Translations under genes and position numbers: made by a program
Notes under the pieces: model-generated
What the model was told of the DNA's origin: nothing
The model's database searches: none
What the model saw: only the letters and a program-made list of their open reading frames with translations
Source: a virus
Taxonomy: Duplodnaviria > Heunggongvirae > Uroviricota > Caudoviricetes
IMG/VR virus record: IMGVR_UViG_3300028485_000059
Coordinates: 1-5,507 of that record
DNA: 5,507 nucleotides
Direction: 5' to 3' (one strand)
Shown here: piece after piece, positions 1 through 5,507 of the stretch
Numbering within the stretch: position 1 is the first letter of the stretch
How the letters are laid out: each line of letters opens with the position of its first letter

Positions 1-103
1 AGAAACCGGAGAATGGCAGTGGACATTTCAGGTCGGGGACCTTGAAAACGTCAATATCACTCACTGGGCAGTAATGCCGAAAGCACCGGAGAATAAGAAA
101 TGA
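1..103 (+). CDS. 3' end of an upstream gene (partial; start lies outside the window)
   Basis: Frame open from base 2 to TGA at 101-103 (…ETGEWQWTFQVGDLENVNITHWAVMPKAPENKK*). The stop overlaps the next ATG (ATGA at 100-103), the same coupling pattern seen through the rest of the operon. No family recognised. Confidence 0.35.
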   Translation, partial: ETGEWQWTFQVGDLENVNITHWAVMPKAPENKK

Positions 104-303
104 GCGTGATAAAAACTCATACAGGAATTGTTATCACCCGAGACGGTCCGCAGGTAAAAAAACTGCACCAGACAAAGCGGATGTGGGTCGTCGGAAAAAA
201 CGAGTTTTACCACAAAGAAACCGGACGCCGCCACTTTGCAGAAAATACGCGCCGCCGACTGCTGATCGACAGCATCAAGCCTATCGAGGTGAAGCATGTT
301 TAA
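100..303 (+). CDS. hypothetical small phage protein (67 aa)
   Basis: ATG at 100 preceded by GGAGAA Shine-Dalgarno; stop TAA 301-303 overlaps the next start (ATGTTTAA). Part of the coupled operon. No motif recognised. Confidence 0.5.
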   Translation: MSVIKTHTGIVITRDGPQVKKLHQTKRMWVVGKNEFYHKETGRRHFAENTRRRLLIDSIKPIEVKHV

Positions 304-535
304 ACAGAACGAAAAATCTATCGCTCAAATTGCTGAGTATATCCCGCGTGCGTGCCGGGGTATGCAGTTGCAGGAAGCCAAAGCGCGCCTGGAGAAAAAA
401 ATTGCGCTCTATATCGATGACGGCTGTGATGCTGCCGTTCTTAACGCAGCGTTCGCGCCAGCTCTTAACAGTCATACGCGGGAGTCTTTTTTTTCGCGCA
501 TCGCAGCGCAGATCCGTAAAGGAGGCAACCAGTGA
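296..535 (+). CDS. hypothetical small phage protein (79 aa)
   Basis: ATG 296 with GAGGTGA Shine-Dalgarno 6 nt upstream; stop TGA 533-535 overlaps the GTG start of the next gene (GTGA). No motif recognised. Confidence 0.5.
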   Translation: MFKQNEKSIAQIAEYIPRACRGMQLQEAKARLEKKIALYIDDGCDAAVLNAAFAPALNSHTRESFFSRIAAQIRKGGNQ

Positions 536-1086
536 GCGAGATTAACTATCAGGCTCTGCGACTGGCGGCAGAAAATGCAACACCAGGCGAATGGTGTGCT
601 GATGACTACCATGGAGTAATTGCCGATGCCGGACTGAACGCCAATTACTACATAGCATCATGCTCAGGACCAGATAATCGCGCCAATAAACGATTCATAG
701 CCGCCGCCAATCCTGCCACCGTCTTGGCGCTGCTAGATGAGCTGGAAGCAGCAGAGAAGCGAAACGCTGAATTACAAAGCGAGAATGCATACATCCGCAA
801 CCGGTACAAAGAACTGGACCTATTAATCGGGAAAAACATTCTGGTCATGCAGGCTGCCATTATCGAATGGCAGGCAACTGGCGACGCTAAGAGCGGACTG
901 GCATGGATTTATAACACACTGTTTGGCCCTGGCGAATTACCGGACGAATCTGAGAAAGATGCTCAGGCCTACTTTAATCGCAAATATGCACCGATTGACG
1001 AAAAGCTCATGGCGCTTCACAAGTGGTTTTGGGAACAAAGTGAAGCCGAGCGCGCCGCCGCCAACATTGGTGTGAAGGGGAAGTGA
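532..1086 (+). CDS. Ead/Ea22-like family phage protein (184 aa)
   Basis: GTG start with strong AAAGGAGG Shine-Dalgarno. N-terminal QALRLAAENATPGEW and internal FIAAANPATVLALLDELEAAEKRNAEL match my recollection of the Ead/Ea22-like family of lambdoid/P22-like prophages. Assignment is from memory, not a search. Confidence 0.7.
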   Translation: MSEINYQALRLAAENATPGEWCADDYHGVIADAGLNANYYIASCSGPDNRANKRFIAAANPATVLALLDELEAAEKRNAELQSENAYIRNRYKELDLLIGKNILVMQAAIIEWQATGDAKSGLAWIYNTLFGPGELPDESEKDAQAYFNRKYAPIDEKLMALHKWFWEQSEAERAAANIGVKGK

Positions 1087-1087
1087 G

Positions 1088-1279
1088 ATGAACGGACAAA
1101 TCTCAATTGTTCGACCGGGAGCATGTGACGATTGCGAGATACGAATGATTATTCGTCTGGCGAGGGGGAAAACAATAACTGCTCTCATTACTCCTGAAAA
1201 TCTCGCATTAGCATTAACCGGAAAGTCAGACCTGCCAGTAGAGCTAAAGCTGCGAAATATTGAGATTAAAGTGAAATAG
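1088..1279 (+). CDS. hypothetical small phage protein (63 aa)
   Basis: ATG 1088 starts 2 nt after the upstream stop; AAGGGGAAG Shine-Dalgarno-like sequence. No motif recognised. Confidence 0.45.
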   Translation: MNGQISIVRPGACDDCEIRMIIRLARGKTITALITPENLALALTGKSDLPVELKLRNIEIKVK

Positions 1280-1281
1280 TT

Positions 1282-2040
1282 ATGAATACTCTTACCAAAG
1301 AATGGTTACAGAACACGATTACCGGAATTGAGTCGATAATAGACGATAAATCGTTTGTATGTAGTGAAATAGAATTCGAAATAGGTCAGGTTAACAACAT
1401 ACTTACCGCATTTAAAATTGCACTGGCATCGCTGGCAGCAGTATCGGATGAACGGGCAGCCTATGAATTATTTATGGAGAAGCGTTTCGGGGAATCTGTA
1501 GATCGCCGCAGGGCAAAAAATGGTGATAGAGAATACATGGCATGGGATATGGCGCTTGGCTGGATTATCTGGTGTCACCGCGCCGCCATGCTTCAGGGAG
1601 GCCAACCTGTAAACCAAACTTACAACTTGCCAGAATTAATCGAAGGCATGGAAGTTTCCATTGATGTTAGCACTTGTGATGCTGATTTAGGTAATCGCTA
1701 TTTCGGCACCGTCACCGAGGCGTTAGAACTTGATACAGCCAAGAATGGTTACATCCTCCTGGTTCAGGACGCAGAGCCTAACTTCGATGTAAATGGCAAC
1801 TCTCCGGGAACTCCGGATAGTTGGATAAGCTGTAGTGATCAAATGCCTGAAAAGGGCCAGAACGTGCTTATTTCGGTGAATTTCGATAGCTCTCTGGTTG
1901 AACCGCTAATATGCTCCGCACGCTATACCGGAAGCACCTTTCGGCGCGGAGATGCAACGATTAAGCCGGGTAATGGTATTGAGCAAGCAACTCACTGGAT
2001 GCCGCTACCGGAACCGCCGCAGGAGGTTAACCGTGGCTAA
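1282..2040 (+). CDS. DUF551 domain phage protein (252 aa; unassigned N-terminal region plus C-terminal DUF551)
   Basis: C-terminus WISCSDQMPEKGQNVLI…ATHWMPLPEPP matches the DUF551 signature as I recall it (W…LPE…THWMPLPEPP). Stop TAA 2038-2040 overlaps the downstream GTG start. Confidence 0.7.
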   Translation: MNTLTKEWLQNTITGIESIIDDKSFVCSEIEFEIGQVNNILTAFKIALASLAAVSDERAAYELFMEKRFGESVDRRRAKNGDREYMAWDMALGWIIWCHRAAMLQGGQPVNQTYNLPELIEGMEVSIDVSTCDADLGNRYFGTVTEALELDTAKNGYILLVQDAEPNFDVNGNSPGTPDSWISCSDQMPEKGQNVLISVNFDSSLVEPLICSARYTGSTFRRGDATIKPGNGIEQATHWMPLPEPPQEVNRG

Positions 2041-2314
2041 CCTGCAACTTGCCGTCAAAGGTGAATACTTCGATGCAATGATTCGCGGAGAGAAAACAGA
2101 AGAGTATCGCCTGTGTAATGACTACTGGAATAAGCGAATTATGTTCCGCGAGTATGACCGCCTGATTATCACAAAGGGATATCCGAAGCGCGACGACTAC
2201 AGCCGCAGAATTGATGTTCCGTATGACGGATATGAAATCAAGACAATCACACATCCACACTTCGGTGATAAACCGGTAAAGGTGTTCGCGATAAAGGTAA
2301 ATATTGATGGCTAA
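2033..2314 (+). CDS. ASCH/DUF3850-like (PUA-fold) domain protein (93 aa)
   Basis: The ORF track begins at 1952, but GTG at 2033 has a perfect AGGAGG Shine-Dalgarno 6 nt upstream and overlaps the previous stop (GTGGCTAA). N-terminal LQLAVKGEYFDAMIRGEKTEEYR resembles the ASCH/DUF3850 pattern (…YF..I..G.KT.E.R). Confidence 0.55.
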   Translation: MANLQLAVKGEYFDAMIRGEKTEEYRLCNDYWNKRIMFREYDRLIITKGYPKRDDYSRRIDVPYDGYEIKTITHPHFGDKPVKVFAIKVNIDG

Positions 2315-2645
2315 ATCAGCAGCAGAGCGCAAATCCGCTCAGAGAGCCAGACAAGCTGAATCCGGTGTACGTAAGCTGGAGATTGTGCTTGATGCTCAGG
2401 AAATTGAAATGCTGGAGCGTAACTGTGCCACGCGTCGCCCCGGGCGTGCGCCTTACGAATTTGGTGAGTATATAGCGTTACTGATCCGCCAGGATGATGT
2501 ACGCGTGCGCGGGCGTATAAAATCGATCAGCAGAAAACGTTGCGGTAAGTGCGGCGAGAGAGTTCCAGTTAATTCATGCCCGTGTAATGGTGACTCGCAA
2601 TGCTGGGTGACTAAAGGCTGGCATGAAACGAAATTAATAGTGTGA
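2307..2645 (+). CDS. hypothetical Cys-rich protein, putative DNA-binding/regulatory (112 aa)
   Basis: ATG 2307 overlaps the upstream stop (ATGGCTAA). C-terminal cysteine cluster CGKCGERVPVNSCPCNGDSQCW (C-x2-C-x9-C-x-C-x5-C) looks like a zinc ribbon. N-terminal RKLEIVLDAQEIEMLERN…YEFGEYIALLIRQ has strand-helix-helix character. Last gene before the terminase leader. Confidence 0.55.
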   Translation: MAKSAAERKSAQRARQAESGVRKLEIVLDAQEIEMLERNCATRRPGRAPYEFGEYIALLIRQDDVRVRGRIKSISRKRCGKCGERVPVNSCPCNGDSQCWVTKGWHETKLIV

Positions 2646-2653
2646 CATGTCAC
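2642..2653. promoter_or_regulatory. 12-bp perfect palindrome GTGACATGTCAC (copy 1), candidate protein-binding site
   Basis: Perfect dyad overlapping the stop codon of the Cys-rich gene. The 14-mer TGTGACATGTCACG recurs exactly at 4905-4918. Confidence 0.5.
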
Positions 2654-2693
2654 GAGTAGATTATGCATGATGAATTTGATGGTTTTGAATACT

Positions 2694-2720
2694 GCCGCCA
2701 ACTATGGCGGCTTTATTTTG
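2694..2720 (+). terminator. rho-independent terminator in the terS leader
   Basis: 7-bp GC-rich stem GCCGCCA / TGGCGGC (2694-2700, 2705-2711) with ACTA loop, followed by TTTATTTT (2712-2719). Confidence 0.65.
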
Positions 2721-2723
2721 CAT

Positions 2724-2754
2724 GGTACTATTACCAAAACGGTAACTATTACCA
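2724..2754. repeat. two tandem dyad-symmetric sites (GGTACTATTACCA / GGTAACTATTACCA) just upstream of terS
   Basis: Exact 10-mer ACTATTACCA at 2727-2736 and 2745-2754 (period 18 bp). Each unit is internally palindromic (GGTA-CTAT-TACC and GGTAA-CTA-TTACC). Confidence 0.5.
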
Positions 2755-2762
2755 CGGTGGTT

Positions 2763-3359
2763 ATGATGCCTGCTGAACCTAAAACCTATAAACGCAAATC
2801 AACGCAATTTAAGCCACTAACAGCAATGCAGGAGGCTTATTGCCAGTCATACATCAAAACGCCTGAAAACCAGACTCAGGCAGCGATTAATGCAGGATTC
2901 TCCCCAAATACAGCGGCAGTTAAAGCCAGTGTAATGATGCGCGATGAACGCATTCAAAAACGGATTGCCGAGTTGATGGAGGAGCGCAACAAACGAATGC
3001 GCGTCAGTGCTGATTACGTTCTCATGCGCCTGGTGGAGATCGACCAGATGGACGTGATCGACATCCTCAGCGACGATGGGAGCCTTAAACCAATCCATGA
3101 GTGGCCGAAAATCTGGCGCACTACGCTTAGCGGCTTTGATCTGTCATCGACCATCATGAACATGAACGAGGATTCGATAGAGACAATCCTCAAAAAAATT
3201 AAATGGCCTGACAAGGTGAAGAACCTCGAACTGATTGGTAAGCACGTCGACGTCAACGCGTTCAAAGAACGCATGGATGTTAATGTGAATGTGACAATCG
3301 CTGATCGCATAGCAGCAGCCAGGAAGCGACTCAAAGAACGTCAGGATGGTAATCAGTGA
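2763..3359 (+). CDS. terS: terminase small subunit (Terminase_2-like)
   Basis: QTQAAINAGFSPNTAAVKASVMMRDERIQKRIAEL matches the helix-turn-helix signature of Terminase_2-type small subunits. Stop overlaps the terL GTG start (GTGA at 3356-3359). Start set at ATG 2763 (ATG 2766 also possible) rather than the track's 2667, because 2667-2762 holds the terminator hairpin and the dyad repeats. Confidence 0.75.
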   Translation: MMPAEPKTYKRKSTQFKPLTAMQEAYCQSYIKTPENQTQAAINAGFSPNTAAVKASVMMRDERIQKRIAELMEERNKRMRVSADYVLMRLVEIDQMDVIDILSDDGSLKPIHEWPKIWRTTLSGFDLSSTIMNMNEDSIETILKKIKWPDKVKNLELIGKHVDVNAFKERMDVNVNVTIADRIAAARKRLKERQDGNQ

Positions 3360-4831
3360 CAGATACAGCGTTATCTCCTGAAGAGCAGTTGATCGAGGAT
3401 ATTGCAGGGTTCACTCACGATCCGCTTGGCTATGCCCTCTATGCGTTCCCGTGGGGGGAAGAGGGGACTGAATTAGCACATGCCACCGGTCCACGTCAGT
3501 GGCAAGCCGATGCGTTCCGAGAGATACGTGATCACCTGCAGAATCCAGAGACGCGCCATCAGCCGCTTATGCTGGCACGCGCTTCGGGGCACGGTATTGG
3601 TAAATCAGCATTCATCTCAATGCTGATCAACTGGGGCATGTCCACTTGCGAGGATTGTAAGGTCGTGGTGACCGCCAACACCGAAAACCAGCTACGAACG
3701 AAGACCTGGCCGGAAATTATCAAGTGGTCGAACCTTGCTATCACGAAAGACTGGTTTACCTGTACCGCTACCGAGATGTACAGCAATGATCCTGGGCACG
3801 ACAAGCGGTGGCGAGCTGACGCAATCCCCTGGTCTGAGCACAACACTGAGGCATTCGCCGGACTACACAACGAGCGTAAACGCATCATCGTGGTATTTGA
3901 TGAAGCGTCGAACATTGCGGATCTGGTGTGGGAAGTTGCCGAGGGTGCGCTAACGGACGAAGACACTGAGATTATCTGGGTGGCGTTCGGAAACCCTACA
4001 CGTAACACCGGGCGTTTTCGCGAATGTTTCCGCAAATATAAACACCGCTGGAAAACTGCGCAGATTGACAGCCGGACGGTGGAAGGCACTAACAAACAGC
4101 AGTTGCAGAAATGGGTTGATGACTACGGGGAAGACAGCGACTTCGTTAAAATCCGTGTGCGCGGCATATTCCCTGATGCATCTGAATTGCAGTTTATCCC
4201 TACCGGACTTACTGACGAGGCAATGAAACGGGTGATAACCGCTGCGCAGGTGGCACATGCTCCGGTGATAATCGGCGTTGACCCGGCATACTCTGGTGTT
4301 GATGACGCTGTGATATACCTGCGGCAGGGGCTGCACAGTAAGGTGCTGTGGACTGGCAACAAGACCACTGACGATCTGATTATGGCGAAGCGTATCGCTG
4401 ACTTTGAAGACCAGTACCAGGCTGACGCAGTGTTCATCGACTTCGGTTACGGAACTGGTCTGAAGTCAATCGGTGACGGCTGGGGGCGTACATGGCAACT
4501 TGTTCCGTTCGGTGGCGCGTCTACTGACCCACAGATGCTCAACAAGCGTGGAGAGATGTTCAACTCATGCAAGACATGGCTGAGGCTGGGCGGCATGCTT
4601 GATGACCAGGAAACAGCGGACGATCTGTCGGCGGCAGAGTACAAAGTTCGAGTGGACGGTAAAATCGTTATCGAACCGAAGGAAGATATCAAAGAACGAC
4701 TTGGGCGTTCTCCTGGTAAAGGCGATGCGCTACTGCTGACGTTTGCGTTCCCTGTGTCGAAGCGTCTGCGAATTCCCGGTCAGCAGAACCAGCAAGGCAA
4801 TGCCATCACAGATTACGATCCCTATGCTTAA
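3356..4831 (+). CDS. terL: terminase large subunit (ATPase plus nuclease), 491 aa
   Basis: Walker A-like ASGHGIGKS, Walker B RIIVVFDEAS, and C-terminal RNase H-like nuclease motif VIIGVDPAYSG…DDAV. Length and position directly after terS fit. GTG start coupled to the terS stop. Confidence 0.9.
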   Translation: MTDTALSPEEQLIEDIAGFTHDPLGYALYAFPWGEEGTELAHATGPRQWQADAFREIRDHLQNPETRHQPLMLARASGHGIGKSAFISMLINWGMSTCEDCKVVVTANTENQLRTKTWPEIIKWSNLAITKDWFTCTATEMYSNDPGHDKRWRADAIPWSEHNTEAFAGLHNERKRIIVVFDEASNIADLVWEVAEGALTDEDTEIIWVAFGNPTRNTGRFRECFRKYKHRWKTAQIDSRTVEGTNKQQLQKWVDDYGEDSDFVKIRVRGIFPDASELQFIPTGLTDEAMKRVITAAQVAHAPVIIGVDPAYSGVDDAVIYLRQGLHSKVLWTGNKTTDDLIMAKRIADFEDQYQADAVFIDFGYGTGLKSIGDGWGRTWQLVPFGGASTDPQMLNKRGEMFNSCKTWLRLGGMLDDQETADDLSAAEYKVRVDGKIVIEPKEDIKERLGRSPGKGDALLLTFAFPVSKRLRIPGQQNQQGNAITDYDPYA

Positions 4832-4870
4832 TCCGCTGGTGGGGATAATGTCGTTGATATCCTCTGGTGA

Positions 4871-4907
4871 GGATAAAACAAAGCCAGCTCATAGGCTGGC
4901 TGTTTGT
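4871..4907. terminator. bidirectional intrinsic terminator between convergent terL and the DUF2829 gene
   Basis: Stem AGCCAGC / GCTGGCT (4882-4888, 4895-4901), loop TCATAG. On the - strand it is followed by UUUGUUUUAU (strong); on the + strand by GUUUGU (weaker). A second hairpin TATCCTC-TGGT-GAGGATA lies at 4858-4875. Confidence 0.6.
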
Positions 4908-4917
4908 GACATGTCAC
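4906..4917. promoter_or_regulatory. 12-bp perfect palindrome GTGACATGTCAC (copy 2)
   Basis: Exact repeat of the 14-mer TGTGACATGTCACG seen at 2641-2654; sits between the bidirectional terminator and the stop of the - strand DUF2829 gene. Confidence 0.5.
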
Positions 4918-4921
4918 GGTG

Positions 4922-5218
4922 TTATTGAATTACAATCCAATCATCAGATAGCAGATCGGTTTGAGATGCCAGCCACGGTACAAAGCAACCGTCAGCAGTT
5001 TTCATCCCAATCCACGGTAGAAGTTTAACGCCAGGTACAAATGTATACTCGTCACCGCATGTAACGTCAAATCGCCAATCGTTCGGAGTGGCCGATTGCG
5101 GTGGCTTAACCAGTTGCAGATACATGCCTTTGCCATTCCATCCGGCACGTGCAATGCGCTTACCATCTTTGAGTGATGACAAAGCAGTGGAGAAAGATAC
5201 TGTTGATGTTTCGCTCAT
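4922..5218 (-). CDS. DUF2829 family protein (Tad2-like; candidate anti-defence protein), 98 aa
   Basis: ATG at 5218 (- strand) with AAGGTGAG Shine-Dalgarno. Motifs ARAGWNGKGMYLQL and KTADGCFVPWLASQTDLLSDDWIVI match the DUF2829 signature as I recall it (GWNGKGM…MKTADG…PWLASQTDMLAEDW). Flanked by intrinsic terminators on both sides and on the opposite strand to the terminase operon. Confidence 0.7.
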   Translation of the reverse strand: MSETSTVSFSTALSSLKDGKRIARAGWNGKGMYLQLVKPPQSATPNDWRFDVTCGDEYTFVPGVKLLPWIGMKTADGCFVPWLASQTDLLSDDWIVIQ

Positions 5219-5229
5219 AATCTCACCTT

Positions 5230-5253
5230 AAAAAAATGCCCGGCGAACCGGGC
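5230..5253 (-). terminator. rho-independent terminator (T2) immediately upstream of the DUF2829 gene
   Basis: On the - strand: GCCCGG-UUCG-CCGGGC (6-bp GC stem, UUCG tetraloop) followed by A + U7, then directly the Shine-Dalgarno of the DUF2829 gene. Confidence 0.7.
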
Positions 5254-5330
5254 GAACTGGAAGCAATGAGTTATGCCTTCCGTTGCTGTACGGGTTTACA
5301 GCATGAAGTCATCGCAATGGCGTCCTGCTG

Positions 5331-5373
5331 TAAAAAGGGCGGTGATAGTCCTTCAAGGGAAACCATCACCGCC
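5331..5373 (-). terminator. rho-independent terminator (T1) downstream of the tRNA gene
   Basis: On the - strand: 9-bp stem GGCGGTGAT / ATCACCGCC (5365-5373 / 5338-5346) around an 18-nt partly paired loop, followed by CUUUUUAC. Lies about 43 nt past the tRNA 3' end. Confidence 0.6.
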
Positions 5374-5416
5374 AAGCACCTGGAACTTCTGGCATCACGG
5401 TCCTTAGGCGTGATTC

Positions 5417-5493
5417 TGGCGTGGCATGCAGGATTCGAACCTGCGACCAACCGCTTAGAAGGCGGTTGCTCTGTCCAGCTGAGCTAATGCCAC
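5417..5493 (-). tRNA. tRNA-Arg (anticodon UCU), 77 nt including encoded CCA
   Basis: Reverse complement folds as a cloverleaf: acceptor GTGGCAT/ATGCCAC (7 bp), D-arm GCTC…GAGC, anticodon stem ACCGC/GCGGT with loop CU-UCU-AA, T-arm GCAGG-TTCGAAT-CCTGC, discriminator G, CCA. T-arm matches enterobacterial argU as recalled, but the acceptor and anticodon stems differ. Confidence 0.85.
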
Positions 5494-5507
5494 AACGCTG
5501 AGAGCAC

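Follow-up and report, generated by a model that had tools for sequence, protein, structure and literature searches.

A tRNA-Arg(UCU) gene and two conserved terminator hairpins form the tail of a structured untranslated leader at a cassette-swap site of phiV10-like prophages

The window analyzed here (the whole stretch of DNA, 5,507 nucleotides (nt), positions 1 to 5,507 of IMG/VR virus record IMGVR_UViG_3300028485_000059, Caudoviricetes) ends in a tRNA-Arg(UCU) gene on the minus strand, followed on that strand by two intrinsic terminators, T1 and T2, and by the gene for a Tad2-like (DUF2829) protein. As judged by homology, the window is a phiV10/epsilon15-like (Uetakevirus) prophage: its last 708 bases are 99.2% identical to a prophage of Escherichia coli ECSC054, and parts of its end are 96-99% identical to phiV10, the O157 typing phages 9 and 10, ZX5, TL-2011b and other Uetakevirus. 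The prophage gene order begins with terS and terL, continues on the opposite strand with a leader, the tRNA, T1, a hairpin (H2), T2, a cassette gene and a third terminator (T3), and then resumes with gp3, portal and capsid genes; the free phage phiV10 has the same order as the ECSC054-type prophage. Of 5426 complete E. coli genomes, 514 carry the region, in every case with these prophage surroundings, and the version with the Tad2-like gene occurs in only 3. The tRNA and the two terminators are the tail of a conserved, structured and untranslated leader of about 0.5-0.6 kb, most of which lies beyond the window edge and therefore outside the view of a first-pass annotation made from the letters of the window.

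ARAGORN reports one tRNA in the window, tRNA-Arg(tct), with the anticodon at position 35 and an encoded CCA end, at 5417-5493 on the minus strand. The Rfam tRNA covariance model (RF00005) scores this segment at 71.7 bits (E=9e-15), compared with a gathering threshold of 29 bits, in agreement with the first-pass call of a tRNA-Arg(UCU). The tRNA is identical to argU of E. coli K-12 at 63/77 positions (82%), sharing with it the T-arm, the D-stem, the anticodon loop, the discriminator G73 and the CCA end. The divergence of the acceptor and anticodon stems next to an identical T-arm, which the first-pass annotation had noted, is thus borne out. Ten of the 14 differences constitute five compensatory pair exchanges, three in the acceptor stem (2:71, 4:69 and 6:67) and two in the anticodon stem (29:41 and 30:40), while the other four affect bases of the D-loop and variable loop. 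The identity set of the E. coli arginyl-tRNA synthetase consists of A20, C35, U36 and the discriminator G73, and all of these positions are kept in the phage tRNA when it is aligned with argU. The tRNA is probably functional, and would presumably be processed and charged.

The anticodon loop is the same as that of the host, and nothing in it suggests evasion of an anticodon nuclease. In phiV10 genes, AGA is used 6.8 and AGG 4.4 times per 1000 codons, about three times the level in E. coli K-12, and the tail-fibre gene has 10 AGA codons. Phage-wide codon supply is the simplest reading of the role of the tRNA. The gene itself was already known, being annotated in several records. We regard it as phage-borne rather than as an attachment site, because the cassette sits between terL and the portal gene; this position and the divergence from argU agree with the first-pass proposal of a phage-borne copy.

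The stretch of 198 nt that follows the tRNA folds with z=-4.2 relative to shuffled sequences, and about 190 nt of it are 74-86% conserved (blastn) in Uetakeviruses of Salmonella, Klebsiella and Enterobacter, including the tRNA-less phages epsilon15, Tyrion, PAT1, Kp4865-1 and BUCT554. When viral contigs were scanned for a 15-mer taken from the spacer between the terminators, 120 loci were returned, about 85 of them true homologues, from which an alignment of 34 non-redundant copies (A2) was made; RNAalifold predicts T1, T2 and H2 from this alignment. First after the tRNA is a small hairpin, H1 (5394-5414, minus strand, from alignment A2; -4.8 kcal/mol), with the sequence AUCACG-CCUAAGGAC-CGUGAU or AUCACG-CCUNAGGAC-CGUGAU, which is near-invariant in Uetakevirus leaders and 97.5% paired, with no covariation. 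T1 (5332-5373, minus strand) has a stem of 14 bp (5338-5373) followed by CUUUUU, with the U-tract at 5332-5336, and folds at -22.8 kcal/mol (z=-5.8); it is 100% paired in the 34 relatives, where two of its pairs show compensatory change from GC to AU or CG. H2 (UUUACAGCA...UGCUGUAAA, 5295-5334, minus strand, from RNAalifold) shares three U of the T1 U-tract and displays an apical loop of 14 nt, GCCAUUGCGAUGAC (5308-5321), that is invariant in the 34 relatives. Its stem varies in compensated fashion, alignment pair 121:140 being GC in 19 and AU in 14 sequences and pair 122:139 being AU, GC or GU. T2 (5230-5253, minus strand, found by the terminator scan) consists of GCCCGG-UUCG-CCGGGC followed by A-U7, with the stem at 5238-5253 and the U-tract at 5230-5236, and folds at -12.9 kcal/mol; its stem changes from GG/CC to AC/GU in 11/34 relatives and remains 100% paired. 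The spacer from the T1 U-tract to the T2 stem is 78 nt long. The H2-T2 module is restricted to Uetakevirus-type phages, in which it was found in 36 records.

Taken together, the structure formed by H1, T1, H2 and T2 is 96.7% paired in the 34 relatives and contains 54 double-change cells, compared with 15.7±3.2 in column shuffles; when the pairing partners were slid by 1-3 columns as a control, pairing dropped to 31-44%. A terminator scan of 4700-5507 found three minus-strand sites, T1, T2 and T3, against 0.8±0.9 in shuffles, and each of the three has a GC-rich hairpin directly followed by a U-tract on the transcribed strand. T3 (4882-4901; scan site on the minus strand; -11.6 kcal/mol) lies between the convergent cassette gene and terL, marks the right boundary of the cassette and is annotated as a terminator in phiV10. 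The two minus-strand terminators of the first-pass annotation are therefore conserved, with compensatory changes, and T1 and T2 are genuine conserved terminator hairpins; termination itself is predicted from their structure. Two further observations concern this module. The octamer GCCAUUGC of the H2 loop recurs in the hairpin loops of three other leader inserts (loci L011, L075 and L116), but as a recurring loop motif it was unconvincing, since about 0.9 such recurrences would be expected against the three found, and two of the three come from related sequences. In L009 and L035 an extra gene stands between T1 and H2, so the leader tolerates insertion at this point as well as after T2.

The U-tract of T2 (5236-5230) runs straight into a Shine-Dalgarno sequence, AAGGUGAG (5229-5222), as the first-pass annotation had described, and the ATG of the Tad2-like gene follows at 5216-5218. 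The gene (4922-5218, minus strand) encodes a protein of 98 amino acids that scores 85.7 bits against Pfam PF11195, where the curated cut-off is 25 bits, in a match spanning positions 2-73 of the 73-position profile. Chains of Tad2, ModTad2, SptTad2 and AcrIIA7 in the PDB match it along its entire length with E values of 3e-15 to 6e-12; its likeness to Tad2 and AcrIIA7 is one of sequence membership. On this membership the gene is an anti-defence cassette. Between the window and phiV10-type phages, homology stops precisely at 5230, where the T2 U-tract meets the Shine-Dalgarno sequence, and is back near 4920, at the stop codon and T3; these are the limits of the swappable cassette. The motif AAGGUGA-N4-6-AUG is kept ahead of unrelated cassette genes: an open reading frame (ORF) begins behind AAGGUGA, 8-15 nt past the T2 U-tract, in 72/86 loci, and these frames belong to at least eight unrelated families. 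Among them are the Gp49/Sf6 gp66 family (PF13876; 34 loci), families of 123 (14 loci), 292 (7 loci) and 143 amino acids (6 loci), Tad2-like proteins of 98 amino acids or of 173 with an extra N-terminal domain (6 loci), and an Acb2/Tad1 hairpin-domain protein (PF24729) at a single locus (L087). Two of the families recognized by Pfam are sponges that bind cyclic nucleotides and counter Thoeris or CBASS, which identifies the position as an anti-defence slot.

A consensus scan of 4700-5507 found no sigma-70-like promoter on either strand. With no promoter between the tRNA and the Tad2-like gene, and with the T2/Shine-Dalgarno junction conserved, transcription must pass T1 and T2 to reach the gene, as the first-pass annotation had proposed for DUF2829. 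The remaining 14/86 loci have no such ORF after T2, and most of them have an operator-like palindrome there (TTACC-N5-GGTAA or a near match). In ten loci (L059, L060, L066, L082, L086, L102, L025, L073, L109 and L133) the palindrome, either TTACC-N5-GGTAA or the near match TTACC-N5-GGTA, replaces AAGGUGA-ATG and is possibly part of a promoter; the downstream cassette in these variants is presumably under its own control by the same repressor.

The window stops inside the leader, 14 nt ahead of the tRNA, and the core, promoter and operator of the leader lie beyond 5507. These last 14 positions (5494-5507, minus strand) are the 3' strand, GUGCUCUCAGCGUU, of a long helix that RNAalifold predicts from alignments A3 and A4. 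In locus L001 this strand pairs with CAACGAUGAGAGCAUU about 60 nt upstream, and compensated variants of the helix occur in L012 (GUAGCUCAC/GUGAGCUAC) and L056 (GAGCGCA/UGCGCUC). The sequence UGCUCUYNNCGUU before the tRNA was considered as a boxA/nut element, and this was rejected because it is the 3' strand of this long covarying helix. The interval from gp3 to the cassette, compared in the ECSC054 prophage and in 11 genomes of phages, is 0.5-1.1 kb long, non-coding and conserved on the strand of the tRNA. It opens, about 330 nt beyond the window end, with TTGACA-17-TACCTT, a putative leader promoter that is overlapped by the palindrome TTACC-N5-GGTAA. In the roughly 330 nt of leader after this promoter, pairing of the predicted helices reaches 97.5% across 20 sequences, and 35 double-change cells are seen, compared with 12.5±3.2 in shuffles.

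The palindrome is found elsewhere in the prophage, with two copies between the repressor and cro-like genes, two just past the 3' end of the repressor gene in an OL-like position, and three further sites, and the epsilon15 record annotates it as a repressor-binding site. This distribution fits one repressor that would directly control many promoters of this phage. In L001 the palindromes are at 3539, 3601, 4313, 4361, 4699, 6644, 6706, 9930 and 13015, and the sites occur in the immunity region and behind the replication genes, as well as where terS begins and at the promoter of the leader. The terS copy is present in the window as TACC-N5-GGTA at 2732-2746.

Between the long helix and H1, the leader contains a segment that always opens with GUUGUGG and closes with CCACAAC(CC) or CCAC(G/A)CCAGA, and which we refer to as the slot. 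About two thirds of the unique sequences have tRNA-Arg(UCU) in the slot; the remaining slots contain many unrelated RNAs of 75-410 nt. The slot RNAs fold as multi-branched structures in which the GUUGUGG/CCACAAC helix closes the junction and the first hairpin lies beside its 5' strand; the last hairpin is stacked on the 3' strand in two of five folded slot RNAs (L012 and L116). The commonest non-tRNA type has near-identical ends (5' GUGGUGAAUGCGCAGGCUGAUGCGC, 3' GCCGGAGAUCAGCACCGGCCACCAC) around wholly different centers, and RNAs with such tRNA-like ends and centers of 50-250 nt are found in L011, L012, L035, L039, L042, L044, L055, L088, L093, L108 and L123. A further type has D and T arms that look genuine, with T stems that covary (CCGG/CCGG, CAUG/CAUG, CUGG/CCAG) around a UUCGAUU loop. 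ARAGORN called no tRNA or tmRNA in the tRNA-like slot RNAs. The D-like loop of slot RNAs, GCUGAU, and their T-like loop, AUCAGC, are complementary and might form a kissing interaction. A search for pairing of slot RNA centers in cis, on the model of P4 CI, by blastn-short against the available flanks returned nothing above chance. The tRNA acceptor stem opens with GUGG and ends with CCAC, just as the slot helix does at its base in relatives without the tRNA, and the tRNA thus looks as if it had been grafted onto the slot helix. L075 has two slots in tandem, and the leader evidently tolerates slot duplication.

Ahead of the long helix is a core of about 180 nt that is widespread. A genome scan with a 19-mer from the leader returned 24 loci, of which the real ones were all in Enterobacteriaceae and many lacked H1, H2 and T2, and blastn against phages found the core in 92 phage records. 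Its carriers include P1, P7, D6, SJ46 and RCS47 and, among lambdoid phages, cdtI, 2H10, Stx2c-converting phages, Stx2a_WGPS2 and mEp390. The structure tested on an alignment of 28 diverse core sequences (A4) comprises five helices and a pseudoknot formed by the loop CACC with a downstream GGUG. It is 96.3% paired, with ten pairs showing compensatory change and 52 double-change cells compared with 12.9±4.3 in shuffles, and slid controls reach only 26-48%. Without exception, one pair of helix P2 is either CG (18 sequences) or UA (10), and one pair of the pseudoknot either CG (25) or AU (3). Neither Uetakevirus nor P1 nor lambdoid copies of the core had an Rfam 15 match at E<=1, and no Rfam hit overlapped the slot RNAs, H1 or H2.

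In P1 (L159, NC_005856.1), the core lies at 71023-71191 between trnI and ban, is about 80% identical over 160 nt and is not annotated in the P1 record; it belongs to the C1-controlled ban operon, together with trnA, trnT and a dicF-like region. In the lambdoid phages cdtI (L160, 2421-2915), 2H10 (L165) and Stx2a_WGPS2 (L164), the order is cI, the cI terminator, PL (TTGACA-16-CATAAT), core, long helix, slot and a T1-type terminator (GGCGGUACCAG...CUGGUACCGCUCUUUUU), followed by about 130-450 nt of non-coding sequence and the first ORF. Neither an N-like gene nor an arginine-rich motif was found between PL and the first ORF of lambdoid carriers by Pfam search and motif inspection. In epsilon15 (L004, 1470-1530), part of the leader has been lost by deletion between direct repeats of TTCCCTTGATGCT. 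SPNIS2 (L013) and the viral contig L067 have a deletion like that of epsilon15, and the hybrid sequence no longer folds into T1.

The explanation that we favor, with confidence a little above even, is that the end of the window is the 3' part of a repressor-controlled minus-strand early unit whose leader yields the tRNA and whose cassette is expressed by read-through. The absence of repressor would allow transcription to start at the operator-overlapped putative promoter TTGACA-17-TACCTT, which would drive the untranslated leader with its pseudoknotted core, long helix and variable slot helix. The slot would here hold the tRNA-Arg(UCU), with the first and last 4 bp of its acceptor stem (GUGG/CCAC) serving as the slot-helix base, and host tRNA-processing enzymes would presumably cut the tRNA out, supplying AGA decoding. 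Most transcripts would stop at T1, and those that continue would fold H2 and meet T2. Only RNA polymerase that passes both terminators would reach the ribosome-binding site fused to T2 and express the cassette, in this case a Tad2-like sponge that may act against Thoeris-type immunity. The analysis establishes the features themselves, how they are conserved and covary, their genomic setting and the exchange of cassettes; use and repression of the promoter, processing and charging of the tRNA, and expression of the cassette by read-through are steps that we infer.

How RNA polymerase might pass the terminators is a more tentative matter. By analogy with the put RNA of phage HK022, the core could make RNA polymerase resistant to terminators in cis, the most speculative step, which we consider possible but less likely than not. 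The put RNAs of HK022 act against both intrinsic and Rho-dependent terminators, without a tether, from a position proximal to the early promoter (PMC9378689). Because put RNA acts untethered, excision of the downstream tRNA would not matter to such a mechanism. Like the core, putL and putR of HK022 and the putL-like element of HK639 are located just past a repressor-controlled early promoter, in enterobacterial temperate phages without N, and have terminators after them. The location typical of put is seen in both settings, as PL, core, slot, T1 and a first ORF without N in the lambdoid phages, and as putative promoter, core, tRNA, T1 and T2 in the Uetakeviruses. The put RNAs differ in being about 70 nt long and consisting of two stem-loops, whereas the core has about 180 nt with a pseudoknot and is followed by the long helix and slot; they also have no sequence similarity to the core in nhmmer searches. 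Antitermination by the core is proposed by analogy. To our knowledge, RNA-only processive antitermination is known from very few phage elements, namely HK022 put and the HK639 putL-like RNA. In its widest form, which is speculative and to our minds rather doubtful, the proposal is that the core, common to Uetakeviruses, N-less lambdoid phages and P1, is a third class of cis-acting RNA antiterminator without sequence kinship to the put RNAs, which in Uetakeviruses would license read-through of T1 and T2 for exchangeable anti-defence cassettes early in infection, with one of its helices serving as an evolutionary docking slot for a tRNA or for hypervariable tRNA-shaped RNAs.

Several observations weigh against this explanation. 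T1 could merely end a stand-alone gene for a non-coding RNA (ncRNA) or tRNA, and T2 could be a safety stop that shields the convergent terL. The -10 hexamer of the putative promoter (TACCTT) is weak, and the consensus scan reported a neighboring, poorer hexamer pair instead. The Tad2-like gene contains no AGA or AGG codons, and the tRNA is therefore not there for its neighbor. Each phage has a single core copy, and the Uetakevirus core stands outside the main early operons and serves this small unit only, though those operons also hold annotated terminators. The P1 core is followed by ban, with no slot and no T1-like terminator (sought with a T1-specific pattern), and epsilon15, whose deletion removes the slot and H1 entirely and takes with it the 3' part of the core and the 5' half of T1, is viable. 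Searched with a core profile in nhmmer (E<=10), neither the immunity region of HK022 nor the complete HK639 genome, with its annotated putL-like RNA, gave a hit.

The most serious alternative, which we hold to be a real if minority possibility, is that the core, long helix, slot and T1 make up a gene for a stable, trans-acting, stand-alone ncRNA that is co-transcribed with tRNAs, in the way of GOLLD and ROOL RNAs in other prophages, with T2 as a fail-safe and the cassette expressed by leak; the core would then play no part in termination. T1 follows the core and slot in both the Uetakevirus and the lambdoid settings, the core has tRNA neighbors in P1 and L148 and occurs once per genome, and a complex conserved core with hypervariable peripheral domains is what such a gene might look like; the P1 copy has no terminator behind it. 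This account is difficult to reconcile with the lambdoid phages, in which a purely terminating T1 between PL and the early-left genes would silence the operon in the absence of N, and accidental expression hardly explains why a T2-fused ribosome-binding site is kept ahead of many cassettes.

We consider it improbable, yet compatible with read-through expression of the cassette rather than exclusive of it, that H2-T2 (5230-5334, about 105 nt) represents a small RNA (sRNA) of the Hfq type processed from read-through transcripts, with the H2 loop as its seed against an mRNA of the host or phage. The invariant loop GCCAUUGCGAUGAC is displayed on a covarying stem, the GC-rich terminator hairpin with its U7 (at least 6 U, together with a conserved seed) is typical of an Hfq-binding 3' end, and the module is kept even in epsilon15 despite the loss upstream. 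The scan of 4700-5507 that found no promoter applies equally to an sRNA promoter, and in the phiV10 genome the loop has no complementary target longer than 9 nt, its 8-9-mers being at chance level.

The first-pass annotation had drawn attention to UGCUGUA (5303-5297) and UACAGCA (5290-5284) as segments capable of alternative pairing. They are present and can fold in the window, the downstream hairpin at -7.6 kcal/mol (z=-4.5), and UGCUGUA could pair either with ACAGCA upstream or with UACAGCA downstream, which would make the two pairings mutually exclusive. The pairing is not conserved, however, and the conserved fold of the spacer is H2: full downstream pairing occurs only in the window variant, the 34 relatives are 63.6% paired with no covariation and nothing above shuffles, UACAGCA is missing from Klebsiella, Salmonella and Enterobacter copies, and neither pairing touches the T2 stem. 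An attenuator that regulates T2 in this way is therefore very improbable.

Even less credible is a real gene in the plus-strand ORF at 5236-5487 (83 amino acids; PhiV10p04 in phiV10), whose coding constraint would account for the conservation. Antisense frames of 34-69 amino acids are open in most relatives, and the ORF is annotated in several GenBank records. The frame has no Pfam match and no Shine-Dalgarno sequence and is antisense to the tRNA; indels of 1 and 4 nt between clades leave no common frame, the substitutions are paired stem changes and not third-position changes, and the records annotate differing ORFs on differing strands. With no domain match, a broken frame and inconsistent annotation, we rejected it as a probable annotation artefact. 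Lastly, the first-pass alternative that the tRNA is the host integration site or a remnant of attB/attP can be set aside as having next to no probability: many phages do integrate in tRNA genes and K-12 argU is the attachment site of DLP12, but this tRNA is mid-prophage between terL and portal, also in free phages, and only 82% identical to argU, with no adjacent integrase, the phiV10 integrase being at 26.9 kb, about 24 kb from the tRNA, and the relative ZX5 having its attP beside the integrase and its attB at the guaA 3' end (PMC9782041).

The leader can be compared with several other known phage systems. The leader of the P1 ban operon (Pban/Op72, dicF-like region, trnA, trnT, tciABC, trnI, ban) is likewise repressor-controlled and rich in ncRNA and tRNA genes, and it shares the core itself; it differs in that the tRNA precedes the core and is not in a slot after it, and in having no T1-like terminator, H2 or T2. 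The PL-nutL-N-tL1 region of lambda is similar in having an early RNA element ahead of early-left terminators, and the lambdoid core occupies the position of nutL and N. In contrast to lambda, the leader systems have no N gene, the boxA-like UGCUCU is a strand of the covarying helix, and the terminator stands ahead of every ORF, which leaves no downstream-encoded factor able to act on it first. A nut site, with boxA, boxB and an N-like protein, is not supported, as the first ORFs gave no N-family Pfam hit and contain no arginine-rich motif.

The tRNA genes ileZ-argN-argO of lambdoid and Stx phages, and the tRNAs of large lytic phages, are another close parallel. Like those phage tRNAs, the present one reads the rare AGA, which is used more by the phage than by the host; unlike them, it is a single tRNA grafted on a helix of a larger conserved RNA and exchangeable with tRNA-shaped RNAs in sister phages. 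GOLLD and ROOL are large, ornate, conserved prophage RNAs that are associated with tRNAs and have variable peripheral domains. The leader resembles them in being conserved and structured, beside tRNA genes and variable at its periphery, but it has no Rfam match, is smaller and enterobacterial, and lies behind repressor-controlled early promoters.

The leader RNA family, the slot for a tRNA or tRNA-like RNA, and the T1-H2-T2-Shine-Dalgarno module at an anti-defence swap site appear to be undescribed, as the three features are in neither Rfam nor the searchable literature, whose reach excludes the P1 genome paper and the antiterminator-RNA paper of King et al. The covariation-supported RNA shared by P1, N-less lambdoid phages (including Stx-converting ones) and Uetakeviruses would represent either a new antiterminator class or a new family of phage ncRNA. 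A phage tRNA gene can evidently ride as an insert in the helix of a larger RNA and be swapped for tRNA-shaped RNAs that are not tRNAs. The junction of terminator and ribosome-binding site marks a hot spot for the exchange of anti-defence genes (Tad2-like, Acb2/Tad1-like and others), and could be mined for counter-defence genes.

Some minor observations concern the cassettes and the neighborhood of the core. The L078 cassette protein (88 amino acids) corresponds to the N-terminal half of PHROG 872, whose C-terminal half is matched by the Tad2-like domain; the Klebsiella cassette of 173 amino acids (L008/L123) looks like a fusion of the two domains. Rfam matches in the regions examined were limited to the tRNA and to the unrelated neighbors C4, isrK and int-alpA. 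An int-alpA RNA lies within the cassette region of Tyrion (L005, 2066-2130), and C4 antisense RNA and isrK are found on the PR side of core-carrying lambdoid phages (L152, 1630-1815; L160, 277-465; L165, 775-963).

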